From positions 1 through 64,000 of IMG/VR virus record IMGVR_UViG_3300037248_000024: a stretch of 64,000 bases of DNA; one strand, 5' to 3'. The translations under genes and the position numbers were made by a program. Under the pieces are notes generated by a model that saw only the letters and a program-made list of their open reading frames with translations, was not told the DNA's origin and ran no database searches. This document shows positions 8,942 through 33,682 of this stretch, piece by piece (position 1 is the first letter of the stretch; every line of letters starts with the position of its first letter). Origin of the DNA: a virus.

Positions 8942-10849
8942 ATGAAAAAATGGCTTCTCACCGCGTTGCTGTGCATCGTTCCGTCCCTGGCATGGGCGGC
9001 ATGTGAACCGACAAACGCCACTCCGGGAATGATTGGGTGCTGGCCGCAGGTCACCACGATGTCGCTTACCGATTCCGTGGACATCTGGCAACCGCTGGCA
9101 TTCCCGGCGTCCGCCAACCGAATTCATCTCCAGGACTTTTTGCATGTCGCACCACCGATTGGCGATGTCACGCCGAACACGGGAAGGTTTTCGACGCTGA
9201 CCGCGACGGGCGCGGCATCGCTGAACAGCGGCGGCGCACTCTCCGGCACCTTCACGGGCAACCCCATCTTCAATGGCAACCCCATCTTCTCCGGCGCGGT
9301 GACTTTCACCGGATCGGCGCCATCAGGGGCCGGTATCACGGCGTTGTTTGGTTCGCCTCCCGCGATCGGTTCCGTTGCTCCGGGGTCAGTCAGTTCCGCG
9401 AGTGGCGCGCTGAACGGAACGCTTGGTGCCACGACGCCGAATACGGCGGCGGTGACCTCTCTGACCCAGAGTATGTCCTATATCCAAATCGATCCCAATC
9501 CCTTCGATCTCGCCAGCGCCAGCACGCAACTCTGCACATCCGCTCAATTCTGGTGCAGCCACGCCACCGTTACGTCCATCGGTACGCTGACCGGCGTGAC
9601 CGATGCTACCTCGTTCGTCCTGGCGGACTCCGTGCTGTCCTCGGGCCAGGTTCAAGGATGGGATTATGTGTTGACGGTGGCTCCAAACGGAACCTCGGCG
9701 TCCGGGACGCGCCTCGGCATGGTGGTTCTACTTCAGCAGATCGGCACCTTGAACGGGGGAACCATAACCAACTCCGGCATATCGACCGCGTTTGGGGCAT
9801 CGGTGGCGATGAAATCCAATCTGGGCGGGACGGCCACGCTTTACGCCGGAGAGGGAAACGCTTTTGTTACTTATTGCGAACTTTTCGCCACCGCGACATA
9901 CACCCATGGATGCGCCGCTTATGAGACGGACATCGGCGTTGCCGCGGGTGGGTCGTACGATCAGATCAGTCACTTTAATCTGGTAACCTCATCCCAGCAC
10001 GCCGTGGAAGGTCTTACCAATAGCAATTTCGGGATTCAGATCACGGCGCAGACCGGCGCGCGCGCCGATATAAAATATGGGATCAAGTTCGCCGATGCCA
10101 GTTCGCAATATGCCTTTGATCCATTCGCTCATCTGCTGTCGTCACCCGTGCCGGGGTCGGGTTCGCTTTCAGCGGCGTCAGGAATTGATTTCGCCAACAT
10201 GACCTATAAGGCGTTCTCGTCGCGCCAACCATTTTCAATGGATGTGCCGCTACAGGCGACCGGCATCACCACGGCAACACGCCTGACCAGCACTGGCGCG
10301 GCGGCGAACTCATTTGTTTATGAAGCCGTCGTGACAGGACGCGGGACCGGCTATACGAGTAATCCCACGGTCGCGGTCACGGGATGCACGTCTACCGTCA
10401 TCAACGCTGAACCTGGAAACGGCGGGGCGTTCGGGTTATCCGGTGTCTACACACCGGGAAGCGCGTGCGCCGCCGAGTCCACGGCATCAATCAGTGGCGG
10501 CGGTGGTTCTGGTGCCACGATGGCGCTACAGATCGCTGGTAACACCGTCAATCTTCCGATCAATTCAACGAACACGATACAATGTTCCGCCGCGGCGCAG
10601 GATGCCAGCGGTCACAGCTATGGCTTCACGATTTCCTTTGGCGTTACGATGGGCGCCACTGCGAGTACGACGGCGCTTGTCGGTTCTCCCACCTGGATGC
10701 AGGTATATCCAGCCAGCGGGACAGCAATCGCATTATCGGTCGCGGCCGACACCACGCTTGGCGCCGTCAACATTACCGCGACCCCAACATCCGGGACGTG
10801 GAATATTGGCGGCAAATGCACCGTCGTTTCGACGAGTCAGGTGATCTGA
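8942..10849 (+). CDS. Tail fibre/spike-like protein with a Sec-type signal peptide
   Basis: MKKWLLTALLCIVPSLAWA|A; shaft repeats PIGDVTPNTGRFSTL and GTLGATTPNTAAVTSL; GTGYTSNPTV..SGGGGSGA. Confidence 0.65.
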   Translation: MKKWLLTALLCIVPSLAWAACEPTNATPGMIGCWPQVTTMSLTDSVDIWQPLAFPASANRIHLQDFLHVAPPIGDVTPNTGRFSTLTATGAASLNSGGALSGTFTGNPIFNGNPIFSGAVTFTGSAPSGAGITALFGSPPAIGSVAPGSVSSASGALNGTLGATTPNTAAVTSLTQSMSYIQIDPNPFDLASASTQLCTSAQFWCSHATVTSIGTLTGVTDATSFVLADSVLSSGQVQGWDYVLTVAPNGTSASGTRLGMVVLLQQIGTLNGGTITNSGISTAFGASVAMKSNLGGTATLYAGEGNAFVTYCELFATATYTHGCAAYETDIGVAAGGSYDQISHFNLVTSSQHAVEGLTNSNFGIQITAQTGARADIKYGIKFADASSQYAFDPFAHLLSSPVPGSGSLSAASGIDFANMTYKAFSSRQPFSMDVPLQATGITTATRLTSTGAAANSFVYEAVVTGRGTGYTSNPTVAVTGCTSTVINAEPGNGGAFGLSGVYTPGSACAAESTASISGGGGSGATMALQIAGNTVNLPINSTNTIQCSAAAQDASGHSYGFTISFGVTMGATASTTALVGSPTWMQVYPASGTAIALSVAADTTLGAVNITATPTSGTWNIGGKCTVVSTSQVI

Positions 10850-11016
10850 TGAGCATCCGCCGCGACGCAGGCCAGGATGTAGGATACGCGCAGGCCAGGA
10901 CATTTATCCGTCCGCGCGATGACCTTGCTCCAGGTCTCATCGCAACCAAAGCAACGGCTCGTGGCGTGGCGAGGGGCCGGGAAGTCATGGCCCTGGTACT
11001 CGGTTTCGATGGACAT
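10837..11016 (-). CDS. 59-aa Cys-containing hypothetical protein (below ORF-track cutoff)
   Basis: AGGAGG RBS then MSIETEYQGHDF..CFGCD..; last gene of the inverted island. Confidence 0.45.
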   Translation of the reverse strand: MSIETEYQGHDFPAPRHATSRCFGCDETWSKVIARTDKCPGLRVSYILACVAADAHQIT

Positions 11017-11028
11017 GCCGTCCTCCTG

Positions 11029-11385
11029 TCAGGGTTTCGGGGCCGCGGTGATGACGGCCGCCGCCGCCTTCGCTTCGTCCCGCTCCTTCGTCAGGGCGGC
11101 GACCTGTTCCCGCAACGCACTCGCCGCCGCCTCTCTGCCTTTGATTGCCGCCGACACGGCCGGGCATTGGCCTGTGTCGCGGGTCACGCCGTTCTGCGGC
11201 ACCTCAACCGACACGCAGGCCGCGATTGTGTTGATATAATCCGAGACCTCGCCGTACGGCCTCGCCGCGAGGTATTGCCGGATCGACACGACAAGAGCCG
11301 TGGGAAGCTCGAGGGTGGGCGGGGCTTCCTGTGCGAGGGCAGTAGCCGAAGCCAGAAGGCATGCAGCCAATGCTAAACGTTTCAT
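11029..11385 (-). CDS. Exported coiled-coil protein
   Basis: MKRLALAACLLASATALA|Q signal peptide; Cys pair; C-terminal coiled coil. Confidence 0.6.
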   Translation of the reverse strand: MKRLALAACLLASATALAQEAPPTLELPTALVVSIRQYLAARPYGEVSDYINTIAACVSVEVPQNGVTRDTGQCPAVSAAIKGREAAASALREQVAALTKERDEAKAAAAVITAAPKP

Positions 11386-11765
11386 TTCGGCGCTCCGGTG
11401 ATGGTCACAGTGTCGTCGCAGAGATCGATGGTGATGGGACCCGGAAGAGTGGTGCCTTCGTTAAGATGGATGCTGTGGCGCCAGCCAGGATTTACATCCC
11501 TGGGACCCACGGCGCGCTCACCGGCCTGAACCGAAAATGTAATTTCCATGTCGCACTTTCCGATTATTGGAACTCCTTCTCTTTCATGTTGGACGGGTGT
11601 TGGATAAAAGGGCCTCCAGTTATCGGCCCGGGGAATGCTTGTGGAATCGCAGCGCGTGACGAGATCGTCTTGCAAAACAACACATGGCGCGGCGTCTGTC
11701 CCGTTCGGCGCCTGTGCGAACGCAGGCCCGGCAACCAACAAAAACACAGCGGCGAGACGTTTCAT
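11382..11765 (-). CDS. Exported Cys-containing protein
   Basis: Likely start ATG 11765, MKRLAAVFLLVAGPAFA|Q; four Cys. Confidence 0.55.
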   Translation of the reverse strand: MKRLAAVFLLVAGPAFAQAPNGTDAAPCVVLQDDLVTRCDSTSIPRADNWRPFYPTPVQHEREGVPIIGKCDMEITFSVQAGERAVGPRDVNPGWRHSIHLNEGTTLPGPITIDLCDDTVTITGAPK

Positions 11766-11950
11766 GGGGTAGGGTCCTTTGTTTTTTCGGTCATGATAGC
11801 CGCTTCTTTCTTCGCCATGTCCGCCATCTTTTCCAGGACGGCCAACCGCACGAATGCGGAGAGCGTTAGCCCCATGGACTCGGCATGGACTTTCGCGCAT
11901 CGCTTCTGGAACGCGGTCAATCGCACCTCCAGGCTGTCGTTCTTTTTCAT
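11762..11950 (-). CDS. Ribbon-helix-helix (CopG/MobC-like) regulator, leaderless
   Basis: SLEVRLT..AESMGLTLSAFVRLAVLE; promoter ends 7 nt before ATG. Confidence 0.7.
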   Translation of the reverse strand: MKKNDSLEVRLTAFQKRCAKVHAESMGLTLSAFVRLAVLEKMADMAKKEAAIMTEKTKDPTP

Positions 11951-11957
11951 ACCGGAC

Positions 11958-11986
11958 AGACTAGGTGCATTACAAGGGCGCGTCAA
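11958..11986 (-). promoter_or_regulatory. Sigma70 promoter for the inverted island (leaderless)
   Basis: TTGACG-N17-TAGTCT-N7-ATG. Confidence 0.6.
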
Positions 11987-12007
11987 CCCCCTCAGGGAGA
12001 CCCCTTG

Positions 12008-12757: not shown

Positions 12758-12760
12758 GCC

Positions 12761-14788
12761 GTGGGAATCCCGCCGCGTCCTTTGATTCTCCAGCCTGGAA
12801 TAAGCACGCAGCAGACCGCCGTGCTGAATGAACAGGGTTGGTCGCAATCGCAACTCATCCGATTTTTTCAGGGCTTACTACAAAAATTAGGCGGGAGTGC
12901 CCGCGTCTCCAACTCAACTTTCTTCGGCATCTGCCGCGGCCTCCGGTCATGGTCGGACCTGACCGGGAATAATTACATCGGCATCGGCACGACGCAGCGC
13001 CTCTATGTCATGCTGAACTCGGTCCTGTCCGACATCACGCCGGTTCGTTCCGTCAGCAACCTGACGACGCCATTTACGACAACGGCGAGTTCTCCAATTG
13101 TCAGTGTGGCTGATGGCGCCGCCGCCGTCGCGCCAGGCGATTGGATCAATATTGAAAATCTGACCTATATCGACGGACTTCTGTTGCAAGGCTTCTATCC
13201 GGTCACGGCGGTCATCGGTGGCGGCTATCAGTTCGACGCCGGGGCGAATGCCATTGCTGGGGTTTCTGGTGGTGGCGCCGTATTACATTTTTCCACGTTG
13301 AACGCATCCCACACCGTCACGATCTCGCTCGGCGCTTATGTCTTCACCAACAACCAGGTCATCGAGGTCTTCTTTTCGACGACGGTCGGCGGCGTCACGC
13401 TGCAAGGTAATTACACGGTATCCGTCTCCGGTTCGACTTATACCATTCAGGCTTCGACCGCCGCCACGGGCAATAACACGATTTATGAAAACTCCAACCA
13501 GACGGCCATCGCGTATCTGATTGAAACAGCCATCGAAACCGGAAGCATCGGAAGCGGCGCGTTCGGTGTTGGGCTTTTCGGTTCCGGGCCGTATGGGACA
13601 TCCTCTTCGACACCACCGATCGGCGGTTGGCTCAGGCAGTGGTCGCTGGATGCCTGGGGCGAGGATTTGTTGGCCAATATCTGCTCAGGCCCGATCTATA
13701 CGTGGACGCCGCCCGTCGCCATCGGGAATACCGCGACCGTTCTGGCTAATTCGCCACCTCAAAATACCGGCATGTTCGTCAACGCGCCGAACCAACAGGT
13801 CATCGCGTTCGGCTGCACCGATCCGAACACGGGATTGCAGGACCCGATGCTGGTCCGGTGGTGCGATGTCGGTGACGATACCGACTGGACGGCCACGGCG
13901 ACCAATCAGGCCGGATCGTTCCGGTTGTCCTATGGCAATCAGATCGTGGGCGGCAGTCCCGTGGGCGGTCAGGCGATTCTTCAAACCGATCTCGACTTCT
14001 GGATGATGCAATATATCGGATTTCCGCTTGTCTATGGCTTCTTCCGAACCGCGCGGGACTGCGGACTTTACAGCCTGCGAAGCAGCGCGGTCTCCGGCAA
14101 TCTCATTGTCTGGCAAGGATATAACGATTTCCATCAGTACGACGGAAGCAGCGTGACAAACCTTCATTGCACGGTATGGGATTTTATCTTCAACAACATT
14201 GACAACAATTACCCTGGCGCGGCCTTCTCGGCGGTGGATGCGTACTTTACCGAGATGTTCTATTTTTTCCCAACGACGGGATCAAACGGCATCGCGAATG
14301 CTTATGTGAAGTTCAATTACAAGGATGGGTTGTGGGACTACGGCCCGATCGGGTCTCTTTCACGGTCGGCCTGGTATTCCGATGGTCCATCCGGGACGCC
14401 CCTCGGCACTGATTACAACGGCCTCGTGCAGGCTCAGGAGGCCGCGACCGACCTCGATGGCGTAGCGATGGACTCCTACGCGGTATCCGGCTGGATGGCA
14501 TTGAGTGAAGGCGACGAATATGCCTGCATGAAATGGTTCTTCCCCGATTTCATTATGACCGGCGGGAATGTCCTGGTGACCATTACGTTCAACGACTATT
14601 TCGATACGACCGACCCGTATAATCCGCCTCGGGTTTACGGGCCGTTCATCGTGACCCCGACGACACCTTATATCTGGGTGAATGGCCGGGGACGTTATTT
14701 CTCGGTCAAGGTCGAAAGCACTGGTCATGGTGTGTTCTGGCGGTTGGGCCGTTGCCGGATGATAATCCAACCCGATGGGAAACGCTAA
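12761..14788 (+). CDS. Tail nozzle / tail tubular protein B-like
   Basis: 675 aa; WSLDAWGEDL, DPMLVRWCD..DWTATATNQAGSFRL, terminal WRLGRCRMIIQPDGKR. Confidence 0.75.
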   Translation: MGIPPRPLILQPGISTQQTAVLNEQGWSQSQLIRFFQGLLQKLGGSARVSNSTFFGICRGLRSWSDLTGNNYIGIGTTQRLYVMLNSVLSDITPVRSVSNLTTPFTTTASSPIVSVADGAAAVAPGDWINIENLTYIDGLLLQGFYPVTAVIGGGYQFDAGANAIAGVSGGGAVLHFSTLNASHTVTISLGAYVFTNNQVIEVFFSTTVGGVTLQGNYTVSVSGSTYTIQASTAATGNNTIYENSNQTAIAYLIETAIETGSIGSGAFGVGLFGSGPYGTSSSTPPIGGWLRQWSLDAWGEDLLANICSGPIYTWTPPVAIGNTATVLANSPPQNTGMFVNAPNQQVIAFGCTDPNTGLQDPMLVRWCDVGDDTDWTATATNQAGSFRLSYGNQIVGGSPVGGQAILQTDLDFWMMQYIGFPLVYGFFRTARDCGLYSLRSSAVSGNLIVWQGYNDFHQYDGSSVTNLHCTVWDFIFNNIDNNYPGAAFSAVDAYFTEMFYFFPTTGSNGIANAYVKFNYKDGLWDYGPIGSLSRSAWYSDGPSGTPLGTDYNGLVQAQEAATDLDGVAMDSYAVSGWMALSEGDEYACMKWFFPDFIMTGGNVLVTITFNDYFDTTDPYNPPRVYGPFIVTPTTPYIWVNGRGRYFSVKVESTGHGVFWRLGRCRMIIQPDGKR

Positions 14789-15069
14789 TGGCCGGCGTCA
14801 ATGACATCTGGCAGACCTTCCAGCAACTGGTATTATCGGTTCAGTCGATCTCGAATCAGTTGAAGACGGGGCTTGTCGTTGATCCGGTGGCGACAAGTTA
14901 TACCGTGGCGATGCTTCCGGTTTCGGGCGCTCCGGGGCAGACTTTGTGGGCGAGTAACGGGCGTAAACCGGCCGAAGGTTCAGGGGCGGGAACTGGAGTT
15001 CCCGTGTTCTGGAACTCCGCTACGACACAGTGGTACTCTTATCTTTCTGGCACGCAGGTCACAAGCTAA
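14788..15069 (+). CDS. Small tail-associated protein
   Basis: TAATG coupling; YTVAMLP..GRKPAEGSGAGTGVPVFW. Confidence 0.6.
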   Translation: MAGVNDIWQTFQQLVLSVQSISNQLKTGLVVDPVATSYTVAMLPVSGAPGQTLWASNGRKPAEGSGAGTGVPVFWNSATTQWYSYLSGTQVTS

Positions 15070-15941
15070 TGCCGACATACACCTCCCAGAAGGGCCTTAT
15101 CCTTCCCACCGTTGGCGGTGACCTCAACGCATGGGGCGGCGAACTGAATGCCGGGTTGACGGCCATCCTGGATAATATCCTTGGTGGCGTCACCACGATC
15201 TCCGTTGCGGGGAATGCCAATGTCACGGTGACCTCTACGCAAGCGCAGTTTCTCTCGCAAAAACTGACCGGGATACTGACCGGAAATATCAATCTGATCT
15301 ACCCGACCGCCGGGGGTTTCTATTTCGTCAACAATGCCAGCACCGGATCGTTCTCGGTCACGGCCATCACCAGTGCGGGCAGCTCGACTGGTATTATCGT
15401 CCCTCAAGGGCAGATGACACTGGTCTGGTCCGATGGGACGAATGTTTATCCGGCCACATCCGCCTTCCAAACATTAACGGTTCTTGGCCTCCTGACGGCC
15501 AGCGGCGGGATTCTCGGCACGACGACGAACGACAACGCCGCCGCGGGGAATGTTGGGGAATATATTTCATCCACCGTTCTCAATCCAGCCGCCGTACCGC
15601 TGACCACGGGCATCCAAACAAATATCACATCAATTTCCCTTACGGCGGGGGATTGGGATGTCTGGGGTAATGTCGGACTGGTCCAGCCGTCGGACACCAT
15701 CATTGGCTTCGCCTATGTTGCCACGAACTCGGTGTCCGCGACGCTGCCAACCCCGCCAGGGAACGGCGGATCTACCACTTATACACCAGGTTCAACCCTC
15801 GCCGGAACCGCTCTTATACCCGCTGGGGTGGCTAGGTTTTCCCTGGCTGTCACTACGACGATCTATCTGGTAACGGAGGTCAACTTTACGGTTGATACCT
15901 GTTCGGCCTACGGCTTCATCGGCGCGCGGCGGGTTCGGTAG
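15069..15941 (+). CDS. Tail fibre protein (no signal peptide)
   Basis: N-terminal anchor MPTYT..G..NAWGGELN; GTTTNDNAAAGNVGEY..SLTAGDWDV..ARRVR tip. Confidence 0.7.
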   Translation: MPTYTSQKGLILPTVGGDLNAWGGELNAGLTAILDNILGGVTTISVAGNANVTVTSTQAQFLSQKLTGILTGNINLIYPTAGGFYFVNNASTGSFSVTAITSAGSSTGIIVPQGQMTLVWSDGTNVYPATSAFQTLTVLGLLTASGGILGTTTNDNAAAGNVGEYISSTVLNPAAVPLTTGIQTNITSISLTAGDWDVWGNVGLVQPSDTIIGFAYVATNSVSATLPTPPGNGGSTTYTPGSTLAGTALIPAGVARFSLAVTTTIYLVTEVNFTVDTCSAYGFIGARRVR

Positions 15942-15992
15942 TGACAAAGCGGTGCATGGTGTCATAAGGTCGCGCGGACAGGAGTTTTTGGG

Positions 15993-17030: not shown

Positions 17031-17049
17031 TCATTTTCGCGAGGGCCGC

Positions 17050-17535
17050 ATGACCCCCAAGCCCCAATCCGTCCGCCTCGCCCACCCCGGCGATGAAGAA
17101 CTTCTCTTCGCCCTGATCTGCGCCTCTGATGAGGAATGGTCATTCGGCACCCGCGATCTCGACAAAATCCGCAATGTGATCTGGGCCTCGATCCACACCG
17201 ACACACCAGAACGCCCGCGCTTTGGCGTCATTGAAGGGAGCGCCGTTCTGGAAGGGGCTATCGGTTTATTTCCCACGGAGCCGTGGAATTCATCGGACCT
17301 CTATCTCCGGGCATTCTTTCATTTCGTGCATCCGTTGTATCGTAAAACACGTCACGCCGTTGATCTCCGCGAGTTTGGCAAGTGGCTGGGCGACACCGCC
17401 GGGATGCCGGTGTTGTTCGAGTTGCCGCATATCGAACAGGCCGAGGCGAAGGCCAGGATGCTGGAGCGAGGCACGCAGTGGATCGGCGGGATGTTCATGC
17501 ACTGTGGGGTTGACGAGATGGTGTTGGTGGCGTGA
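17050..17535 (+). CDS. GNAT-like acetyltransferase, paralog 1
   Basis: VRLAHPGDEE..EGAIGL..PW..FVHPLYRKTRHA. Confidence 0.6.
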   Translation: MTPKPQSVRLAHPGDEELLFALICASDEEWSFGTRDLDKIRNVIWASIHTDTPERPRFGVIEGSAVLEGAIGLFPTEPWNSSDLYLRAFFHFVHPLYRKTRHAVDLREFGKWLGDTAGMPVLFELPHIEQAEAKARMLERGTQWIGGMFMHCGVDEMVLVA

Positions 17536-17783
17536 TGGAAATGCTCGCCGCCTTCCAGACCTGGAACGCGGGCCACCGCCATCCCGGCGCCACGTTCAAA
17601 AACCAGCACGAGGCACAGGCCGCCGTTCATGCCGAGATGAAGGCTGATCCTGAATTGGTCGCCGCACTAAGAGCAGAGCATGCCCGCGTCGCTGAAATCA
17701 CCGCGATCCGCAAAGAAGGTTGCATCATAACCGCCGACCGTCACCGCAGCCTGACCGCGATGCTGGCCGCGCACGATGGTTGA
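17535..17783 (+). CDS. Hypothetical protein
   Basis: Translationally coupled between the two GNAT-like genes. Confidence 0.45.
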   Translation: MEMLAAFQTWNAGHRHPGATFKNQHEAQAAVHAEMKADPELVAALRAEHARVAEITAIRKEGCIITADRHRSLTAMLAAHDG

Positions 17784-18270
17784 ATTTCCATCCGGTATGA
17801 GACTGGCGGCGGCGGGGGATGAAGGTCGCCTCTACGATCTGTTTCTCATGGCGCACATGGAGAACGGCTGGGGCGATGTTGACGAATCAATCGTGAGAAC
17901 GGCCATAGCGCGTGGATGCAAGCCCGATGGCGTCGTAATCGCACTGGTTGACGGCCCGGAACGGATTGAGGCGGCAATTGGGTTGCATCCGGTCAGGCCG
18001 TGGTATTGTTCGGATGCGGTGGGGAACTGGTATAATTCCGATCTTTTGATTTACGTGCATCCCTTGCATCGCCGGTCGCGTCATGCGGTAAAGCTCTTTC
18101 ATTTCGCGCAATGGTGGGAAGCCAAGACAGGGATGCCCGCGCTTCTCGGATTACTGCCAAAGGACGATCTCGAAGATAAGGAGCGGTTGTTCTCTAAATT
18201 TGGTCGGCGTATCGGTGGGTTGTATGTGATCGACAGTGCCGGACGTTGGCCTGAGAAGGCGGCGGCGTGA
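17776..18270 (+). CDS. GNAT-like acetyltransferase, paralog 2
   Basis: MRLAAAGDEG..EAAIGL..PW..YVHPLHRRSRHA; aligns by eye with 17050. Confidence 0.6.
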   Translation: MVEFPSGMRLAAAGDEGRLYDLFLMAHMENGWGDVDESIVRTAIARGCKPDGVVIALVDGPERIEAAIGLHPVRPWYCSDAVGNWYNSDLLIYVHPLHRRSRHAVKLFHFAQWWEAKTGMPALLGLLPKDDLEDKERLFSKFGRRIGGLYVIDSAGRWPEKAAA

Positions 18271-21749: not shown

Positions 21750-21752
21750 CGC

Positions 21753-24700: not shown

Positions 24701-27700
24701 GGTGCATGAGGTGCAATCCGACATGCACCAGGCTGGAAGAAAACGTGGATATTATAACAGCACGAAACCTTGGGAAGTATTCAATCCCGTCGACGGAGCG
24801 CCGGTCGCACGCTTCGCCACCGAAACAGAGGCGCGGGCCGATGCGAGGCGCAGAGGCGACGGATTTGATTTCGCGCGGGGAGACCAAGGCCGCGCCGCCA
24901 ATGCCATCCCCGACGCCCCCTTCAAAACCACATGGCCCGCGCTCGCGATGAAACGTATCATCAAACTCGCGGCGGATAACGGATTCGATCGTGTGGCGTG
25001 GGCGCCGGGAGAAGTGCAGGCGGATCGGTATGATCTGTCGAAACACATCAACCGTCTCGATTACGTTCCGAGCGAAAACACAATCTGGGCATACGATAAA
25101 AATGATCGCATCGCTCATACGATCCGCGATGTCACGCCCGAAAACATGGCGGACAAGATCGGCAAGGAAGCCGCTGAGAAGTTACTGGCGCAACCGGATC
25201 GCGCGCCCGTGACTGGCCCGATTCATGAAGGGCGGATGTGGAAGCGTCTTGAAGGCGCGGACTTGAAGGTGGGCGGCGAAGGCATGAAAACCTTCTATGA
25301 CAAAATGCTGCCAGCCGAAGTGAATAAGATCACGGGGCGGTTTGGCGCGAAGGTGGGGACGAGTGAAATAGCCACACACGACAAAGGGCCAGAAGGTGCG
25401 TGGATAGTTGAGCCGCCGGATCGTTCATGGCAACAGCGATTCAATACAGAGCAAGATGCAGAAGAATGGGCTAGACTTTCAGCGCGAGGATTTGGTCTCA
25501 CTCCGGAGGATATGACGGCAACGTTTGTTGGTAAGCCAGTTCTGCAACCCGTCCACTCCCTCGACATAACCCCCCGTCTTCGTTCCGCCGTCCAGTCCGA
25601 GGGGTTGGGGTTGTTCGCCGGTCGTCGCCTCCCCGCCCCACCACCCGCTGGCCAGGACCTCTTCGGCACCACCCGTGTCGCGTCAGCCCAGCGCACCCCA
25701 GAACCCACGATCCGCACCGATCAACGCCAGGCCGTCATGCCGGGTATGGAACCGTCAGCGATCCAGGCGCAGGCCGCACGGGATAACGCCCCGCCAAAAT
25801 CAAACCAACTCGCACCGAATGAGGGATTGTTCGCGCGCCAAGAACCCGTGCAGCCGCAACTCCCCACACGCACGTCCCGCTACCTCAACACCTCCCCCTT
25901 CACCGACGAACTCCACGAAGCCCCGCTCACTGGCCACGAAGCCGCCGCCGATTGGGTGTTCAACAGAGGCCGAGACACCGGACACGAACACGTCGCCGTG
26001 GTCGATAACCGCACCGGAGAGATTATCCATGCCGGAACCAGCGGCCTCGCGGATGAAGTCAAATGGAAGGGCGATAATGGCACTGATCTGCCGCCCGACA
26101 GCCTGACGATCCACCACAACCACCCCAACGGGTCCGCGCTGTCTGGACCTGACATCGGGATGCTGACAAATCCCGCGATCAGTCATGTCGTCGCGCATGG
26201 GGCAAATGGAACGACGACCGTTGCCTCTCTGGTCCCGAAGTGGAAACCGGAAACTACGGAGCAGATGGTTCCGTTGTTGCGATCAATTAACAGCGCACGT
26301 TTTCATGCCCACACCATCGCCCGATCTCTGTTGCAAGACCTCGTGAACAAGGACGCCATCTCCGGTCCCGTTGCCGATCTCGCCTATGAAGATGTCACCA
26401 ACCGCTTGCTTCATGCCGGTGGCGTCATCAACTACGCCTCCACGCTCGACCTAGCCGCGCCAATCAAGGCGGCGCTCGCCCCCGTATTGAGGAACCTTGG
26501 CCATGCCGATGCAACACATGATCGATATACCGTCGCCGTTCCGCCCGAGGAACGAACAGCAAGCCTTCCTGCGCCGGTTGCTGGCGATGCCGGAGAAGTC
26601 GCCCGAAATCCAGGACGCGATCAGAACGGTGCGGGCGAATCTGGCACCTCTGGGGAACGCCGCGGAGGCGGTGAGGGGGTTGAAGGGGGCGAGGCCACCC
26701 AAGGCAGCCTGAGCGCGGGTGAACCGCTAACCCCCGCCCAACGCGCCGTCCTCGCGCATAACTCCCGCAATGGTCCGTTGCCGCCACGCGAGATGCCGAA
26801 CCTGGTCGAGCAAGGGCCACCGAAACCGCCCAGAGAAGCGCGCGCCAGCCCCAGCCCAAGCGACGAACTCCCCCTCCGCGAACCGCCACAACCCGCCCAG
26901 GGGCACAACGGTGGTCCGCCGATGCCGCCCGATTCCCTATGGCCGCCGGATCAGCAGCCGCCGAAACGCCCACCGCCACCGCCGGAGATCGAGGCGGCAC
27001 GCATTACGGCGCCAGCCGCCACGAAAAACCTGAACCCCGTCGAGAAGTTGACGATCTTTCCGCAGACCCTCGCCAATCTCGACAATATGTCGGCGCGGCT
27101 TTGGAACTCGTGGCAGGCGCGCGAACGGACGGAGAGCACGAACGCCGCCGAACTGCGCGGCATTATACAGCCGAACTTTCTGAAACTATCGAAACCGGAT
27201 CGCCTCAAGGTGGCCGGAGCGCTGGAAATAGCGCGCATCGAAGGCGCGGAAAGTCTGGTCGAAAATCCGGACGGCACGATCACCGCGCACAACGGTTCCA
27301 TCCCGCACGCCAACTGGTCGAAGGTGGGCGACAGCATCCAACTCACCCCACAGCAAACCGCAGCCTATCACGAGGCCGTGCAACTTGGTCGCGATCAATG
27401 GACGATGCTGCAACGCGCGGCGGCGAAACGATATGGCTGGGATGGCGCCCTTGATCCAGCCGCCATACGCGCCGAAGCGCAGTCACGCGGCGAGCCGGGT
27501 GACTATCATCGGCTGAACCGTTTGGCTGACCTCTTGGACGTGATGCGGTCAAACCAGCAGGAAATCTACTTTCCCATGCAGCGGTTCGGATCGTATTTCA
27601 TCGCGATCCGTCCAAAGGCCGGAGAAGGCGTCATCGAAAATCTCGGTGGTCATCCGCCCCTGGCGTGGTTCGAGACCGTCGAAAAGCCAGCATTCCAGGA

Positions 27701-29759
27701 TTTGCTTGGGGCAACACGAGGCGCGGTTTCGGTTCAGGCGCGCGCGGCGAAACGAATCGCGGAACTGGAAAAAGATTTCCCGCCGGATAAATTCGACTAT
27801 CAGCACGGCGACTTCGCGCGGACCCCACAACTCCTGCGCCAACTCAATATTCCCGCCGTCGAAAAACTGTTCATGTTGATGGAGAACAAGGTCAAGGCCG
27901 GGATGACCGACGCCGTGATGCGCGGCGATAACCCGCCGACCACGAAGCAAGGTATTCGTGAGGAAGCGAAGAACCGTTATGATGCGTTACACGGGTCCAC
28001 ACTGGAAGCATTTTATGATGCGCTGTTCGAGGAACTGAAGTCGGGATATCGGCGTCGAGCAAAGGTTGTGCCTGGTTACTCCCAAAATTTTGATAGGGCC
28101 ATCAGCAGCCATCTCTATCAGATCGCTCGCAATGCCGCCGACACGGTTCACCGCGATAGTATCGAGTCAGACTATCAGAACATCCAGGATTATCATTCCC
28201 ACCAGAACGTCAAAAACTATTGGCGTGACTGGCGTGCTTATCAGGAAGACCCCGGATCGCCGTTGTCTCGCGCGGCGGCGACGATGAACCAGATCGGATT
28301 CGCCTACATGCTGGGGATGAATCCCTCGTCCACCATGATCATCGCGTCCCACATGCCGATGACGGCGGCGCCCGTGCTGTCGGTTGGGGTTGGACCTCGC
28401 GTGGCGGTTCCGGCGCTGGCACGCGGCCTGCGGTCGGCTTATGGCGCGCTGAAATTCGACACTGTTCATGGTGGCCAGATTGACCTTGAAAAGGCGATGG
28501 CGGGGATGCCGCCGGAGAAGCAGGCGTTTCTTCGTAAAATGGCGCAGGAGGGGCGCTTGGCTGCTGTCGGCACCCATGACATGGCGGCGCTAAACGATAA
28601 ACTCGCTCCTTTATTCCATGATCATGCCGATCTGGCGCGGCGTGCCATGGAGATCGCGACCTCGAATGTTCACGCCGTCGATCAGGCGAACCGGTTCGCC
28701 GTGGCCTCGGCGGCGTGGGACATCGCCTCCAATCCGGCGCACTTCAACGCCGCGGCAGCGCCGCTGATGCGGCACAATGCCGCCTTCCGCGAAATGGTCG
28801 CCCGCGAGATGGGCCTGTCGCCCGAGTCCTACGGTCGCTTCATGCTGTCCAGGGCCGCGTTCGATTGGGGGAAAGCGAATCAGGCGCCGATCATGCGCGG
28901 GCCTCTGGGCCAACTGATGTTCGCGCTGCATGGGTTCCAGACCCGGTATCTCTCGACCGCGTTCAACCTGATGAAGAACAGTGGACCGGAAGGAAGGCTT
29001 GGATTCTACCTCATGATGGCGGCGTTGTTCGCGGGCGCCGGGGCATTTGGACTGCCGTTCTCTCAGGATGCGTTGAAGGGGGCGGATGAGGTTTACAAGC
29101 ATTTTACCGGACGTGATCCCGCGCTGAAATTCAAAATCCACGACTTCATCCAGGATCATGGCTTTGGCGAGGCTGGCGCTGATATTCTCCTTGATGGCGC
29201 GGCCTCTTATGGGACCGGCATCAATCTTGGTTCTCGCATCGGATTTGGCGATGTCCTGCAACGGGAGTTCGAGAGCACCAATGTTCTCGGCACGATCCCG
29301 TCCATAGCATGGAATGCCTATTCAGGGGCATCCCTGCGATACGAAAGTGGTCAACCAGCGGCGGCGGTCGCGGCGGAAGCGGTCCCGGCGGCACTTCGTG
29401 GACCGCTGCGCGCGCTCGCCGCCTCGCAACAAGGGATCGTCAGTCGTCAAGGCATCGAACAGGTTCCCCCGGAAAATATCAGCAAAGCCGATATCGCCAA
29501 GATCGCGGCGGGATTTCAGCCTCTGGTCGCACAAAAACGCGCGGAAGAAACCCAGCGCTATATCGCCGCCCGGTCTCCCGACGCATGGCGCGACATGATC
29601 AGGAATGGCCAACAGGCCGAAGCCATCAAACAGATGAAAGCGGCCGGGTGGACGCCGGGTCGCGTCGAGGGCTTCATCTTCCAGGCCCATCGTCCTCCCG
29701 GTCCTGGCGTTCAGTTCAGGAATTTCGAACGCAACCGAACCGTTGCCCCGCCCCCCTGA
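21753..29759 (+). CDS. Large polyvalent internal virion protein (ParB-like, EVQSD domain, JAB/MPN, PLxRFG)
   Basis: 2668 aa; VVNGHQR (about 23000), HEVQSDMHQ (about 24710), HHNHPNGSALSGPD (about 26110), YFPMQRFGSYF (about 27570). Confidence 0.8.
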   Translation: MPDGWSLQPVEGDPFAAQSTPGWNLQPVEGDPFAAPPAQAPLHGYAGTDQAAHVRQSVTQADVDAIPDRSGDLKDAAPITSMDSTMTEYGPSATTPGVDRLERNYDVTARNIAESARQAWQGQQPFITPQAQQWLRDKGVPDAAISTLNSPTYALAAMNAIMRGGIEGFHSLLEPVVGEQAARDLSAMPEAFPLAGHELGGLGIPGAPRLTQAESAAMSQAQDFSHPFLAGNETDATIAGRQMREEREALNAQMEAAAQANRPRLTGPGTPVTEEAPAVSLAPEAPLRTPITPEAAAATEAGETAPTWNLEPVAHDPFEAPPSPVDEAASQAVEPTPAQAEVPVTAESPLLEGEVLPPVLPYAMFDPRDLTLAPDTFQYKASDERGVTGALRGATRWESALANPITVWQANDGTNYVVNGHQRTDLALRAQAAGQPDVQMPAQVFREADGYTPEYMRALGAYQNISEGSGTAIDAAKVLRSVGQIPESRRLPDLPPGGELVRQGTALAKLSPEAFGMVTNEIVPAAYAAHVGDLISDPTEQLGALQVLARAEPANSAQARIMVQDAVNSGFARGVQGGLFGEEAFAHSLIPERARVLDQALRSLRKAGGIYRAAVEGEEPLTSAGNTLNREGNIQARTENGRLLDILQRDATTRGPISDALSRAATDVASGKPVAGASSRFLSKARQIVRSGSGAGLRPGDLSHGVEHPAASEVDPAAAFREELGPGLFESPVPLFSPVARAVDGLKQARGTGEQMLAQITKTPGVKPEELAWMGLPGWLRDQKSVTKAQIADFVRANQLDVREVTHPSDEPNQFTVSSAAVPGGQGGMARFRTYDEALAEYSRRRQEYPNGYHSIMEMPPAGTQPKYSGYTLPGGSNYRELLITLPPKATTRESELMRAAGARLRAAEQAELDARARGFDVTRMGNLTDATDRARAAFDRAREAVKQARGQVYRSPHWEEPNVLAHVRFDERTAPDGARVLMVHEVQSDMHQAGRKRGYYNSTKPWEVFNPVDGAPVARFATETEARADARRRGDGFDFARGDQGRAANAIPDAPFKTTWPALAMKRIIKLAADNGFDRVAWAPGEVQADRYDLSKHINRLDYVPSENTIWAYDKNDRIAHTIRDVTPENMADKIGKEAAEKLLAQPDRAPVTGPIHEGRMWKRLEGADLKVGGEGMKTFYDKMLPAEVNKITGRFGAKVGTSEIATHDKGPEGAWIVEPPDRSWQQRFNTEQDAEEWARLSARGFGLTPEDMTATFVGKPVLQPVHSLDITPRLRSAVQSEGLGLFAGRRLPAPPPAGQDLFGTTRVASAQRTPEPTIRTDQRQAVMPGMEPSAIQAQAARDNAPPKSNQLAPNEGLFARQEPVQPQLPTRTSRYLNTSPFTDELHEAPLTGHEAAADWVFNRGRDTGHEHVAVVDNRTGEIIHAGTSGLADEVKWKGDNGTDLPPDSLTIHHNHPNGSALSGPDIGMLTNPAISHVVAHGANGTTTVASLVPKWKPETTEQMVPLLRSINSARFHAHTIARSLLQDLVNKDAISGPVADLAYEDVTNRLLHAGGVINYASTLDLAAPIKAALAPVLRNLGHADATHDRYTVAVPPEERTASLPAPVAGDAGEVARNPGRDQNGAGESGTSGERRGGGEGVEGGEATQGSLSAGEPLTPAQRAVLAHNSRNGPLPPREMPNLVEQGPPKPPREARASPSPSDELPLREPPQPAQGHNGGPPMPPDSLWPPDQQPPKRPPPPPEIEAARITAPAATKNLNPVEKLTIFPQTLANLDNMSARLWNSWQARERTESTNAAELRGIIQPNFLKLSKPDRLKVAGALEIARIEGAESLVENPDGTITAHNGSIPHANWSKVGDSIQLTPQQTAAYHEAVQLGRDQWTMLQRAAAKRYGWDGALDPAAIRAEAQSRGEPGDYHRLNRLADLLDVMRSNQQEIYFPMQRFGSYFIAIRPKAGEGVIENLGGHPPLAWFETVEKPAFQDLLGATRGAVSVQARAAKRIAELEKDFPPDKFDYQHGDFARTPQLLRQLNIPAVEKLFMLMENKVKAGMTDAVMRGDNPPTTKQGIREEAKNRYDALHGSTLEAFYDALFEELKSGYRRRAKVVPGYSQNFDRAISSHLYQIARNAADTVHRDSIESDYQNIQDYHSHQNVKNYWRDWRAYQEDPGSPLSRAAATMNQIGFAYMLGMNPSSTMIIASHMPMTAAPVLSVGVGPRVAVPALARGLRSAYGALKFDTVHGGQIDLEKAMAGMPPEKQAFLRKMAQEGRLAAVGTHDMAALNDKLAPLFHDHADLARRAMEIATSNVHAVDQANRFAVASAAWDIASNPAHFNAAAAPLMRHNAAFREMVAREMGLSPESYGRFMLSRAAFDWGKANQAPIMRGPLGQLMFALHGFQTRYLSTAFNLMKNSGPEGRLGFYLMMAALFAGAGAFGLPFSQDALKGADEVYKHFTGRDPALKFKIHDFIQDHGFGEAGADILLDGAASYGTGINLGSRIGFGDVLQREFESTNVLGTIPSIAWNAYSGASLRYESGQPAAAVAAEAVPAALRGPLRALAASQQGIVSRQGIEQVPPENISKADIAKIAAGFQPLVAQKRAEETQRYIAARSPDAWRDMIRNGQQAEAIKQMKAAGWTPGRVEGFIFQAHRPPGPGVQFRNFERNRTVAPPP

Positions 29760-29859
29760 CCCGTGTAACGTCCTTCCGGGCACGCCGCCCGGCCTGATCA
29801 CCCCGCGATCCGCACCAGAGCACGCCGCGACGGACAGGAACGCATGACGGAGAATCGTC

Positions 29860-30228
29860 GTGCTTCATTTTGTCCGGGCCCTGGCTGTTGTCTTGCTTTT
29901 GCGCGGATCGGCGTGGGGACAGAATGTTCCCGCTGTCGTGACGTGGCAGGCGCCCACGACGGGAACCGTTTCTTCCAGCGCCACCATTGTCGCGACCCCA
30001 GGGGGCAAGGCCACAACGGTATGCAATACCACGGCCTCTGGCGGCGGCAACATTTGGCTCAACCCGAATGGCGGCACGGCAGTCGTTGGCGCGGGACATG
30101 AGGCTGGCGTCGCACAATCGTCTACGGCCATGGGTGGCTGCGTGGTCTACGGCACGCCGCTCGCGCATCCCATAACGGGCGTCTGCGATAGCGGGACCTG
30201 TAGTTACACCGTCACGCGGGGGAACTGA
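29860..30228 (+). CDS. Small exported beta protein
   Basis: GGAGA RBS; signal-like N-terminus ..SAWG|Q; four Cys. Confidence 0.6.
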   Translation: MLHFVRALAVVLLLRGSAWGQNVPAVVTWQAPTTGTVSSSATIVATPGGKATTVCNTTASGGGNIWLNPNGGTAVVGAGHEAGVAQSSTAMGGCVVYGTPLAHPITGVCDSGTCSYTVTRGN

Positions 30229-30231
30229 CGG

Positions 30232-30786
30232 ATGCGGTGGATCGTTCTGATCGGATTACTGATGGCGATCCCGGCGTGGGCGCAGACCAGCCAGTCGCCA
30301 CCGTTGACCATCGTGGCTCCGCCTTCTGGTTCCAACTCCGGCGTCACCTCCCTCACCGCCGGCGCCTGCATCGCGCTGACGCCGAACCCGATCACGGGGA
30401 CGGGGAGTGTGGCGCTTAACCCGAACTGCGCCAATGTGTGGTCCGCGCAGCAATCGGCGACGATCACGACGCTTACGATCTCGACGGCGACGTTTACGCC
30501 AACGGGTGCCTCGAACGATTACGCGATCACGCTGACGAGTGCCTGTCCGTGCACGCTGGCCAATCCCTCGGCGACGCCGGTCGCGGGGACACATGGCATC
30601 ATCACGGTGACGCAAAGTTCGTCTGGAAGCAATACGATCGGGACGTGGGGGTCACAATACGAAGCGCCGGGAGGGACGGCATCGATCACGTTATCAACTG
30701 GGGCGAACGCGGTTGATGTTCTGTCTTATGTGGTGAAGGATTCGACGCATATTCTGATCGTTCCGTCCCTGAATTTCTCGCACTGA
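30232..30786 (+). CDS. Tail-fibre adaptor-like protein with Sec signal peptide
   Basis: MRWIVLIGLLMAIPAWA|Q; TLANPS..G.IITVTQ..WGSQY..GG..LSTGANAVDVLSY domain recalled from phage fibres. Confidence 0.6.
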   Translation: MRWIVLIGLLMAIPAWAQTSQSPPLTIVAPPSGSNSGVTSLTAGACIALTPNPITGTGSVALNPNCANVWSAQQSATITTLTISTATFTPTGASNDYAITLTSACPCTLANPSATPVAGTHGIITVTQSSSGSNTIGTWGSQYEAPGGTASITLSTGANAVDVLSYVVKDSTHILIVPSLNFSH

Positions 30787-30787
30787 C

Positions 30788-33682
30788 ATGAACCGGCGCA
30801 AACTTCTTCTCGGCGCATCGATCGGCGTCCTTGTGGCCGCACTGGAATGGCCGCGCGAGGCTCACGCCACCCCAACCACGATCAATTACACCGTCGCCTA
30901 TACCGGCGCGGACTTCACGTCCTACATCACCGCGACCAATTCGATGGGCACGAACTTCCCGGCGTCGTCCAGCGGAAACGTGACGCTGGCGGGAGCGACC
31001 TCAACAACTGTCCCACTCGCCCTGACGGAAACGGCGGACTTCACCGGACATCCCATAACGATCTCTGGTGTGACCGGCACGTATTTGATTACGTCATACA
31101 ACAACACAACCAAGGTCGCGACGATCTCGGCACTGGCCGGATATCCGGCGACGTTCGCGACGACGCCAGGAACGGGCGCGTCTTACACCATCGCGGACAT
31201 CGCGGTTGTCATCACGATTGGAGCGGCGGCGGCTTATACGGCCCCGCCGGTTCTGATGCCGGGGTCAAATGGGAACTGTTGGGAGCAAGGAACGTCAAAC
31301 TGGGAAATCAGCGGAGTAACTTTTGATTCCGCGCATACGCTGACGATCAATGGCAATACTCCATGGAACCCTCAGGCCGCGTTGCGCCCGAATTATACGG
31401 GTGATCTTACACAACCGGTTCTGATCACTTCAACCAATTACGGTGGCGCGGCCAATGACATCCTGCAACTCAATATAAGTGGAAGCGGCAATTTCATTTT
31501 CCTGAACAACATCCAGTTTCAAGTGCTAAACGCCAATCAACAAGGGCGCGGAGCAATTTTTGACTTTACCTTTCAGTACACCGTGAAAGTTACCGCTACG
31601 AACTGTTTGTTCCAGATCACCAACACGGCGTATGGACTTTTCGTATGTGGCGTCAACACCATGACAAACTGCATTCTCATGATGGATAATGCCACCGCTG
31701 GCCTGGTCGGAGGGACGGGCGAGACCTATAATAACTGCGCGATCTTCGGCTATTCACAGACAGGAATCGCGACGCCTACGACCGAAGCACTCGGCGGCGG
31801 TACGTTCAACGGGTGCTGGATTTTCGGAACCGCCGCACTGACCAACGGCACCGCCACCACATGCACCAAATGTTTCAGTGATTCATCGGGAACAGGCGTA
31901 ACCGTCGTCACGCCCGCGACGCAGATCGCATCGCTCAACGGCCAGTACTACAGCGACATGCGTCCCATCTCGACCACTTCGATGAGCGGCCAGAGTGGCG
32001 CACCACCAGCATCAACGGATATCTATGGTGTTACACGAACGTCCGGTAACTGGACCGCCGGGCCGGTGCAGACCACTTATGCGCTGCCGTCCACTCAAGC
32101 CATCGCCTATAACGTTGAAGCCTCTGGCGGCGACATCACCGCGCTCACCAATCCGTCTATACTCGATAACACGACCGGGCCGGACCTGACCTATTTTCAA
32201 AGCGGACAGGTGTGTTCCGGCACGGCGGCGGACAGTTCACATATCGTGCTCGCGACCACGGCGAGCGCATCGGTGGTCGGCCATCCGGTGCAGTGGAAAA
32301 CCGGCGTCATCGGTCTCATAACGGCGTTCAACGCCAGCACGCATGTCGCGACGATCTCGGCGATCGCCGGGTATCCGGCAAACTTTGGCGGCACTCCGCA
32401 AAGCGGAGATGCTTACACGATATTCCCGACTCAGGTTACCTTCATCATTGGCTATCCGGCGTCGGGCAATACGTGGCTTCTGGCGCAGATTTACAACCCG
32501 ACACCAGGAAGCACGGGCGCCCTGGTGGTCACGGGGCTTTCATCTCCAACCTCCCATGTCCGGGTGACCAGCAACTACACGTTCAATAAGTCGGCTGTTA
32601 TGGGCGACATCACTTCGCAGGCCGTTCCGTGTATCGCAAATCAGTTCGACCATGCTTCTATTTATGGCATAGGGACGCCATACTTTTATACGGACCACAT
32701 GCAGTATTGGATATATTATCAACCGCCAAATACCGCTCAGGAAGGAGAAGGGCTTTATAGGTTCGGCGCTGAGCCTGGAGCGTCTGGAACGCCTGGGGTA
32801 GCTCCCTTTGTTGTTGGCACTACGAAATGTCTGATGCGAAACGATAACCATTCCTCCGTTGGCGCGCACCAGTTCTTCATGCAGGACACCGCGTCATACG
32901 CGGATGGCTCGGTATTTTTCGATACCTGTATATTGGACAGTACGTGCTGGTATGAAACGGTTGGAAATCTGCAATTCACCGCTATCGATTGCACGATAAT
33001 GTGCAATTACAATCTGGTGCTGACCGCGACGGGCGCCACCACTTCCGGCGGCAATACAATCACGGTCGCAAGCACAGCCCAGATTGAGACGAGCCTGGGA
33101 GGATCGGCGGGGCCGCCGCTAGGATCGCTTTATTCCCTCTGGCCCTGCCACGGTTCGATCACGGTCGGCACGTCGGTTACAGTGACCAACGCGACGACTC
33201 TGACCTTGAGCGCGCCCACGACGGGAGCGATCAATATCGGCGACAAGATTTATTTCGGCGTTCAGGCCATGATTTCGTGGGGTGCAGGCGGTTCGTTGGA
33301 GAACACCGCCATTCTGGGATCGTCTTGTCCTGTTTATGCGGCTGGAGCAAGTTCCGTAATCCCGGCCTTTACGACCTGCGCGACGGACGTTCCGGTCACG
33401 GGCACGACTGGGCCGGGACAGACAACCAACCTCTCCGGCGCTGGATTTACCCAGGTGAATTTCGCGACATTGTTCAATGCCGGGTCGGGCGTTGGATCGA
33501 CGGGAATTGATTTGCGACTGGCCGCTGGCGGATCGCAACTCGCCGGGAGTGGCACGCATCGGTCCAGCAACCCGACCGACATCTTCGAACAGACCCGTGC
33601 CAATCCGCCGACCATTGGAGCGCAGGAGTTCGGCGTGGCGTCGACCGCCGGTAATCTAATGATGGGTATTCCAGTGCCGTGA
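30788..33682 (+). CDS. Tat-signal beta-helix protein with an internally duplicated module (receptor-binding/adhesin-like)
   Basis: MNRRKLLLG..AHA|T twin-arginine signal; beta-helix-like N/T/G/C periodicity; choice-of-anchor-Q-like ends TDIYGVTR.. and TDIFEQTRANPPTIGAQEF. Confidence 0.65.
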   Translation: MNRRKLLLGASIGVLVAALEWPREAHATPTTINYTVAYTGADFTSYITATNSMGTNFPASSSGNVTLAGATSTTVPLALTETADFTGHPITISGVTGTYLITSYNNTTKVATISALAGYPATFATTPGTGASYTIADIAVVITIGAAAAYTAPPVLMPGSNGNCWEQGTSNWEISGVTFDSAHTLTINGNTPWNPQAALRPNYTGDLTQPVLITSTNYGGAANDILQLNISGSGNFIFLNNIQFQVLNANQQGRGAIFDFTFQYTVKVTATNCLFQITNTAYGLFVCGVNTMTNCILMMDNATAGLVGGTGETYNNCAIFGYSQTGIATPTTEALGGGTFNGCWIFGTAALTNGTATTCTKCFSDSSGTGVTVVTPATQIASLNGQYYSDMRPISTTSMSGQSGAPPASTDIYGVTRTSGNWTAGPVQTTYALPSTQAIAYNVEASGGDITALTNPSILDNTTGPDLTYFQSGQVCSGTAADSSHIVLATTASASVVGHPVQWKTGVIGLITAFNASTHVATISAIAGYPANFGGTPQSGDAYTIFPTQVTFIIGYPASGNTWLLAQIYNPTPGSTGALVVTGLSSPTSHVRVTSNYTFNKSAVMGDITSQAVPCIANQFDHASIYGIGTPYFYTDHMQYWIYYQPPNTAQEGEGLYRFGAEPGASGTPGVAPFVVGTTKCLMRNDNHSSVGAHQFFMQDTASYADGSVFFDTCILDSTCWYETVGNLQFTAIDCTIMCNYNLVLTATGATTSGGNTITVASTAQIETSLGGSAGPPLGSLYSLWPCHGSITVGTSVTVTNATTLTLSAPTTGAINIGDKIYFGVQAMISWGAGGSLENTAILGSSCPVYAAGASSVIPAFTTCATDVPVTGTTGPGQTTNLSGAGFTQVNFATLFNAGSGVGSTGIDLRLAAGGSQLAGSGTHRSSNPTDIFEQTRANPPTIGAQEFGVASTAGNLMMGIPVP

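Follow-up and report, generated by a model that had tools for sequence, protein, structure and literature searches.

Fibre- and spike-type genes with Sec and Tat export signals in the virion module of a tailed phage

In the textbook view, the assembly of tailed phages is wholly cytoplasmic. Here we examine the first 64 kb (64,000 nucleotides, henceforth the window) of IMG/VR virus record IMGVR_UViG_3300037248_000024, in which four genes of the late virion operon code for proteins beginning with signals for Sec or twin-arginine (Tat) export; three of these proteins continue into modules resembling those of tail fibres or tailspikes. The conservation of the signals, and cysteines that come and go with the signal in one fibre family, point to export and to maturation in the host periplasm; more tentatively, we propose that the exported parts join the phage particle at lysis.

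Signal-bearing genes in the late virion operon

The four genes, which the original prediction had already placed in the virion module, all lie in the late virion operon:

8942-10849, plus strand: P0001, 635 aa, with a Sec signal (8942-8998) called by the heuristic described below
29860-30228, plus strand: P0002, 122 aa, with a Sec signal called by the heuristic and 4 Cys, from a family of small exported proteins
30232-30786, plus strand: P0003, 184 aa, in which a short linker joins a Sec signal to a tail-fibre tip domain of the PF26209 type (Phage_phiTE_241_C)
30788-33682, plus strand: P0004, 964 aa, with a twin-arginine signal (30788-30868) and two tandem right-handed beta-helix modules

Signals were called with a purpose-written heuristic that models the n-, h- and c-regions and the AxA site, rather than with a trained predictor. 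A Sec signal is marked by a positive n-region, by 8-16 hydrophobic residues free of charge in the h-region and by small side chains at -3 and -1, and a Tat signal by a motif of the S/T-R-R-x-F-L-K type, a mildly hydrophobic h-region and an AxA site, often with a basic residue in the c-region. The Sec features are all present in P0001, P0002 and P0003, whose signals end in AWA/A, AWG/Q (in a shorter signal) and AWA/Q, respectively, the slash marking the predicted cleavage site. P0004 has the Tat features, namely N-R-R-K-L-L-L, a mildly hydrophobic stretch, an Arg in the c-region and the site AHA/T. Besides these four open reading frames (ORFs), the heuristic flags the minus-strand ORF 11029, ORF 43720 and a lipobox protein at 45431. 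As to background, four of the other 141 ORFs are called weakly, and two of 523 internal windows are called; among controls, there are no calls for 30 structural ORFs of Caulobacter phage RW or for the nine other virion proteins of Cellulophaga phage phi18:3 that are annotated from mass spectrometry (MS).

The start sites are credible. ORF 8942 begins one base past the stop of the upstream ORF, ORF 29860 has a GTG start with GGAG 7 nt upstream, and ORFs 30232 and 30788 begin three bases and one base, respectively, past the stops of 29860 and 30232. The four are thus co-oriented and tightly packed with structural genes, with starts 1-4 bases past the upstream stops, which suggests that they are translationally coupled with their neighbors. 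No alternative start was found near the predicted cleavage site of any of them. Scans for promoters and terminators around the trio 29860/30232/30788 gave results at shuffle level.

These results uphold the proposal of the original prediction that 8942, 29860 and 30232 carry Sec-type signals and 30788 a twin-arginine signal, as the ORFs exist as written. It was also right in reading the tail fibre at 15069 as signal-less: neither the heuristic nor the translation shows a signal there. Its list of exported proteins named these four correctly and was incomplete, as two more lie on the opposite strand within the module:

11029-11385, minus strand: small protein, 118 aa, with a Sec signal (heuristic) and 2 Cys
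11382-11765, minus strand: small protein with a Sec-type signal, read from the translation, from a likely internal ATG start, the longest ORF reaching 11900

Both fall within a three-gene minus-strand island (10837-11900) inside the virion module that has a moron-like look.

Conservation of the signals

The four exported proteins belong to four different families, each of which keeps its signal while the sequence drifts. Such retention among homologues had been named as a check on the original prediction, and it is seen throughout: by the heuristic in 8 of 11 homologues of P0001 (at 28-53% identity), in 18 of 21 representatives of the P0002 family (a 19th escapes the heuristic) and in 96 of 119 P0003 homologues, and by the RR motif in four of six full-length homologues of P0004 (P0005, P0006, P0007 and P0009) as well as in a relative at a metagenome locus (L002). 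In the P0004 family, the RR motif, the mildly hydrophobic core and the AxA site are preserved in all five of these, and a basic c-region residue, typical of Tat signals, occurs in four of the six signals when P0004 itself is counted. The P0004-family signal appears to be a separable module, because the two remaining homologues (P0010 and P0011) lack it and start with exactly the residue predicted to be the mature N-terminus. Canonical RR motifs are also found on unrelated beta-helix or spike ORFs of two other phages discussed below (L018 and G003).

Cultured phages gave no match in a megablast search with window positions 8900-33800 or in tblastn searches with P0001 or P0004. IMG/VR holds no relative of the N-terminal 100 aa of P0001, and P0004 has no relatives in IMG/VR or in 185,579 genomes, with L002 as the single matching metagenome locus. 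The P0003 family is nearly missing from the same 185,579 bacterial genomes, where only two contigs of metagenome-assembled genomes matched. The genes beside the P0004 homologue in L002 code for signal-bearing, Ser/Thr/Gly-rich proteins that are analogous, not homologous, to P0002 and P0003. Ahead of this analogous trio of signal-bearing genes, L002 has a gene (299-1690) for a TPR-plus-glycosyltransferase-like protein of 463 aa.

Fibre and spike modules behind the signals

The claim of the original prediction that most of these proteins carry fibre or spike motifs is borne out by the shaft and C-terminal domain of P0001, the tip of P0003 and the beta-helices of P0004; on the strength of models and structural matches, we predict that the exported bodies of these three are fibre or spike modules. 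P0001 consists of the Sec signal, a Cys loop with which the mature protein begins, fibre-shaft repeats, a beta-rich body and a C-terminal domain of the tail-fibre/tailspike type (aa 426-635). The latter is modelled at a predicted local distance difference test score (pLDDT) of 70-84, and its best matches are the C-terminal domains of phage tail fibres and tailspikes, including Kp9 gp42 (Z 8.9, root-mean-square deviation (rmsd) 4.2, 112 residues aligned) and Acinetobacter tailspikes (Z 7.8-7.9). The P0001 body is the distal part of ordinary collagen-anchored tail fibres (L003-L005) sited after the head genes of ~40-kb phages, to which aa 216-634 are 44-47% identical. At the other end, P0001 and its homologue P0022 have a common N-terminal ~90 aa followed by different distal parts, a conserved N-terminus with a swapped distal part that follows the modular pattern of fibres.

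P0003 ends in a tip domain of ~120 aa. Several of its homologues bear precomputed hits to PF26209, a putative tail-fibre C-terminal domain, and so do the nearest Atlas clusters (feature score 0.91; template-modelling (TM) scores 0.64/0.82), in which 83-100% of the members with a taxon record are viral and some are fused to an Mtd_N anchor. Signal-less fibres of L014 and of Roseobacter phage CRP-811 have the same domain at their end, at 39-40% identity. More generally, homologues with genuine anchors, whether collagen-like or of the Mtd_N type, lack signals.

The AlphaFold2 (AF2) model of P0004 (mean pLDDT 60.8) consists of two tandem right-handed beta-helices (aa 29-430 and 438-950). In VIA-align comparisons, the two halves have matches at Z 11-15.6, with 205-246 residues aligned at an rmsd of 3.3-4.4. 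The first helix matches pectin methylesterases and lyases at Z 12-13 (207-246 residues aligned), WceF at Z 10.7 and the periplasmic depolymerase VexL at Z 10.6, and the second matches Rhombotarget A at Z 15.6; tailspikes are also among the matches listed. By Foldseek alone the similarity is weak, with a best E of 1.4e-3. The model is thus consistent with right-handed beta-helices of the pectin-esterase, lyase or tailspike type. A beta domain of ~90 aa, repeated ahead of each helix (at aa 60-147 and at aa 466-547; window ~30965-31228 and ~32183-32428), has a G-H-P ... A-G-Y-P-A-x-F motif and is the most conserved part of the family. Pfam has no match for any of the four exported proteins, and PHROG none for P0004; no known catalytic motif was recognized in the invariant columns of the P0004-family alignment, and a candidate CE8-type QDT motif was rejected as not conserved in it.

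Cysteines that covary with the signal

The mature proteins contain several Cys each, as originally noted, and in even numbers: 10 in P0001, 4 in P0002, 4 in P0003 and 18 in P0004 (the small protein at 11029 has 2). Even counts prevail across the signal-bearing members of the families (95 of 96 for P0003, 18 of 18 for P0002 and 8 of 8 for P0001), and Gln stands at +1 of 53 of the 96, 10 of the 18 and 4 of the 8 predicted sites versus a background of 3%; the sequences being related, both sets of counts are inflated. Within the virion module, Cys makes up 0.76% of the signal-less proteins versus 1.6-3.9% of the exported neighbors of the ejection proteins.

The closest tie between cysteines and export is seen in the P0001 body. 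Of the nine signal-bearing members with this body, seven, among them the 1935-aa protein of another phage, have its three Cys pairs (312/324, 482/509 and 548/626) complete, and the other two (P0014 and P0019) keep them in part. All five signal-less members, which have collagen-like or other N-termini, have residues other than Cys at every paired position. Given the kinship of the sequences, the independent events behind this pattern are few, but all point the same way. Even counts and signal-tied pairs together make up what looks to be the pattern of disulfide-bonded periplasmic proteins, and we predict disulfides at these positions. Since the signals are conserved, Gln recurs at +1, Cys counts are even and the Cys pairs covary with the signal, the sequence evidence indicates that these parts are very probably exported by Sec or Tat and mature in the host periplasm, not in the cytoplasm. 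The original prediction had inferred such maturation and had left the mature parts either joining particles at lysis or serving as blockers or adhesins: its first half is supported by the signals, the Gln and the Cys, and our observations do not separate the outcomes offered in the second.

A separate observation concerns the ejection/internal proteins (18267-29759), which have no Cys at all in 3,828 residues. A possible reason is that they pass through the tail and act in the periplasm, an oxidising compartment.

Genomic setting

The source record, from an uncultured phage, is 98,050 bp long, carries a 127-bp direct terminal repeat and is rated complete; its far end, beyond the window, holds the terminase, the portal and a GroES-like gene. 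Among cultured phages, the portal is closest to those of podoviruses that infect Caulobacter, Roseobacter and Pelagibacter, and no tube, sheath or tape-measure genes were seen in the phage. The virion genes of the window include those for the capsid (2698), a nozzle-type protein (12761), the tail fibre (15030/15069), the SLT ejection protein (18267) and a 2668-aa protein (21753). Three features bear on the proposals below:

18267-29759, plus strand: two ejection/internal proteins, one of 1160 aa that has an SLT domain and one of 2668 aa, which close the core virion block immediately before the exported trio
15069-15941, plus strand: signal-less tail fibre, candidate canonical receptor-binding fibre, adjoining the nozzle-type gene (12761-14788)
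42057-42530, plus strand: lysozyme-type endolysin, soluble, without a signal or a signal-arrest-release (SAR) segment

As the endolysin has neither a signal nor a SAR segment, the phage would be expected to use a large-hole holin, and hence cytoplasm and periplasm could mix at lysis. Elsewhere in the window, an HNH/endonuclease VII gene of the homing type (3697-4761) directly follows the major capsid gene, and two 160-aa paralogues of 33% identity (17050-17535 and 17776-18270) lie just upstream of the ejection protein gene. The two further calls of the heuristic, a 190-aa Sec protein (43720-44292, phrog_17576) and a 157-aa lipobox protein (45431-45904), are Ala/Val-rich, lie outside the virion block and could have a spanin or exclusion role.

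Signal-bearing fibre and spike genes in other phages

Comparable gene sets occur elsewhere. Among loci related by their capsid, L012 carries an unbroken run of four signal-bearing ORFs, flanked by a fibre-like gene and an adaptor homologue, and three large ones are found in L018, one of them coding for an unrelated protein whose Tat motif is close to the consensus; in L013, three signal-bearing ORFs follow the ejection proteins. The most extensive case is G003, the complete 106.8-kb genome of a related myovirus with sheath, tape-measure, hub, wedge, capsid and fibre genes confirmed by PHROGs. Between its head and tail genes (9512-30936, L020-L021) lie nine consecutive signal-bearing ORFs of 119-2177 aa, one of them with a Tat signal, in a cassette of ~20 kb that takes up 19% of the genome. 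Pfam has no match for the nine cassette proteins, and tblastn with the 1935-aa protein of G003 or with a signal-bearing protein of L012 found no match in cultured phages.

Among cultured phages, we find Sec-type signals by the heuristic in eight proteins of two Cellulophaga phages, phi18:3 gp085-087 and phi10:1 gp091-094 and gp095. The RefSeq labels of the first seven (structural, tail protein, tail fiber or pectate lyase) are stated to be "based on experimental MS/MS proteomics analysis" of virions (MS/MS, tandem mass spectrometry).

A proposed route and its alternatives

We propose that P0001-P0004, and probably the two small minus-strand proteins as well, would be made late alongside the virion proteins and exported, P0001, P0002 and P0003 via Sec and the pre-folded double beta-helix of P0004 via Tat. 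Signal peptidase I would cleave them at the AxA site, and oxidation in the periplasm would fix the Cys pairs. The set could then constitute accessory gear for recognition of the host surface, made up of a fibre, a protein of the fibre tip, a small partner and a spike active on glycans, and held apart from the cytoplasmic assembly line. At lysis, a holin lesion together with the soluble endolysin would merge the two compartments, so that the matured parts could meet finished particles and dock on them as additional fibres or spikes, next to the ordinary fibre at 15069, which has no signal. For such joining at lysis, argued here by analogy, we see a chance somewhat below even. We favor it because signal-bearing fibre and lyase proteins of the two cultured Cellulophaga phages are MS-annotated virion proteins; the modular pattern of P0001 and P0022, the anchor-like motifs straight after the signal in some relatives, and the soluble endolysin also fit it. 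By extension, several tailed-phage lineages might practice a two-compartment assembly, in which fibres, tips and spikes that cut glycans leave the cytoplasm through Sec or Tat, are oxidised in the periplasm and dock on finished particles only at lysis, a generalization that we likewise advance tentatively and hold to be not quite as probable as its converse.

A number of observations weigh against docking. At the N-termini of the exported proteins, where the signal peptide sits, no particle-binding or anchor domain was recognized, and mature P0004 opens directly with its beta-helix, its best structural matches being monomeric secreted or periplasmic enzymes. The canonical fibre site of this phage is held by the signal-less fibre 15069, and the baseplate-adjacent fibre of G003 is likewise signal-less and stands apart from the exported cassette. 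In Caulobacter phage RW, to which this phage is related through its portal and its capsid, none of the structural ORFs bears a signal, which implies that the exported set is dispensable for this particle type. Membership of the particle is proposed for this phage by analogy with the Cellulophaga proteins; these belong to phages of another phylum, their MS labels do not demonstrate cleaved N-termini or attachment, and co-purified envelope debris could account for them. Docking would also be confined to the short interval of lysis.

Several of these points fit proteins that act freely on the envelope and never enter the particle, an alternative to which we give appreciable weight at about one third. 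P0004 would then be a glycanase or esterase acting in the periplasm or at the cell surface on capsule, exopolysaccharide (EPS) or O-antigen, and P0001-P0003 binders of glycans or receptors; late stripping or masking of receptors would save progeny from being lost to debris and block superinfection, and export would keep these proteins off the assembly line. The closest precedent is WceF of Pantoea stewartii, a Tat-exported EPS glycanase with a tailspike fold and a 28-aa signal directly before it, and the matches of P0004 to WceF, VexL and, above all, pectin methylesterases and lyases agree with such a role. So do the want of an anchor domain in mature P0004, the retention of signal-less canonical fibres by both this phage and G003, the absence of the set from RW and the presence of several other small moron-type exported proteins in the phage. 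However, P0004 offers no assignable catalytic motif and no Pfam or PHROG match, and this alternative does not explain how proteins in the periplasm would get to receptors on the surface ahead of lysis. Long shafts, and an N-terminal module that stays the same while distal parts are exchanged, fit docked fibres better than soluble blockers, and the analogous signal-bearing proteins of two cultured phages are present in virion preparations. In an all-against-all BLAST the exported proteins show no paralogy with the phage's own fibre, so simple masking of its own receptor is not indicated; on the same ground we rejected the idea that they are decoy copies of that fibre.

It is unlikely that the proteins are surface-displayed adhesins, passed outward by type II or other secretion or by vesicles so as to glue the infected cell to hosts or matrix and aid local spread. 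By analogy, the layout that P0001 and P0022 share with the Bdellovibrio fibres discussed below would suit such adhesins, as would the size of the giant Sec proteins of G003 (1935 and 2177 aa). Yet none of the four proteins shows a lipobox, a beta-barrel, an autotransporter feature or a C-terminal sorting motif, and the near-absence of the P0003 family from bacterial genomes marks it as a trait of lytic phages rather than of cells. Very improbable, in our estimate, is that there is no export at all, the hydrophobic N-termini being due to chance, to wrong starts or to uncleaved helices of cytoplasmic assembly. The signal calls do come from a heuristic, the h-region of P0002 is short, and two P0004 homologues start at the mature N-terminus; however, signals kept across four unrelated families, canonical RR motifs on the unrelated ORFs of L018 and G003, the rarity of false calls on internal windows and control phages, the covariation of the Cys pairs with the signal and the lack of alternative starts near the cleavage sites all speak against this.

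If receptor-binding parts of phages do mature in the periplasm, then Sec, Tat, DsbA and signal peptidase would be determinants of phage infectivity and host range, recombinant fibres and depolymerases of this kind would need periplasmic expression, and annotation pipelines would err in taking a signal peptide as a sign that a protein has no role in the virion. Should the proteins instead act freely, phages would carry large late cassettes that remodel the surface glycans of the infected cell, a barely studied function.

Comparison with known systems

Signal-bearing proteins encoded in or beside tail-fibre genes are familiar from the envelope-acting Lom and Bor of lambda, Llp of T5 and Cor of phi80 and N15. 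These are small outer-membrane proteins or lipoproteins; to our knowledge, none has fibre or spike modules and none uses Tat. Other exported phage proteins include SAR and secreted endolysins and the T4 RI antiholin (PMC6116005). We found no description in the literature of export signals on fibre or spike modules in the late operons of tailed phages.

The nearest likeness among phages is with the proteins of Cellulophaga phi18:3 (gp085-087, NC_021794) and phi10:1 (gp091-095, NC_021802), which are also runs of late genes of fibre, tail and pectate-lyase type with Sec-type signals at the edge of the virion module, seven of the eight being labelled from virion MS/MS; we found no comment on their signals in the literature. 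They differ in coming from phages of Bacteroidota, whereas the present host is probably an alphaproteobacterium, in having 0-3 Cys without conserved pairs and in the absence of a Tat signal; no sequence similarity to the phage studied here was seen, none having been sought. Ordinary signal-less fibres (L003-L005, L014 and the "fiber protein" of CRP-811) share the P0001 body or the P0003 tip at the identities given above, but have collagen-like or Mtd_N-type anchors in place of the signal, and those with the P0001 body lack its three Cys pairs.

Among cellular proteins, WceF (PDB 6TGF; PMC7949094) has a Tat signal of ~28 aa directly before a right-handed beta-helix resembling that of tailspikes, its substrate being exopolysaccharide, and it aligns with aa 28-378 of P0004 (Z 10.7, rmsd 4.5, 219 residues aligned). 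It is, however, the product of a chromosomal gene in an EPS-synthesis cluster and forms a trimer with one helix per chain, whereas P0004 is encoded by a phage late gene, has two tandem helices and shows no detectable sequence similarity to it. In Bdellovibrio bacteriovorus, each of the 21 MAT fibres forms a trimer resembling a tail fibre, in which a signal peptide and then a conserved N-terminal domain precede tips that vary (PMC10769870), the same order of signal, conserved module and variable distal part as in P0001 and P0022; these are genes of a predatory bacterium for its own surface, and many have S74 chaperone-protease domains, of which none was seen here. Set against these systems, what the present analysis adds is a Tat signal on a double beta-helix and the covariation of cysteines with the signal within one fibre family, the latter of which offers an easy marker, readable from sequence, for telling exported fibre variants in metagenomes from cytoplasmic ones.

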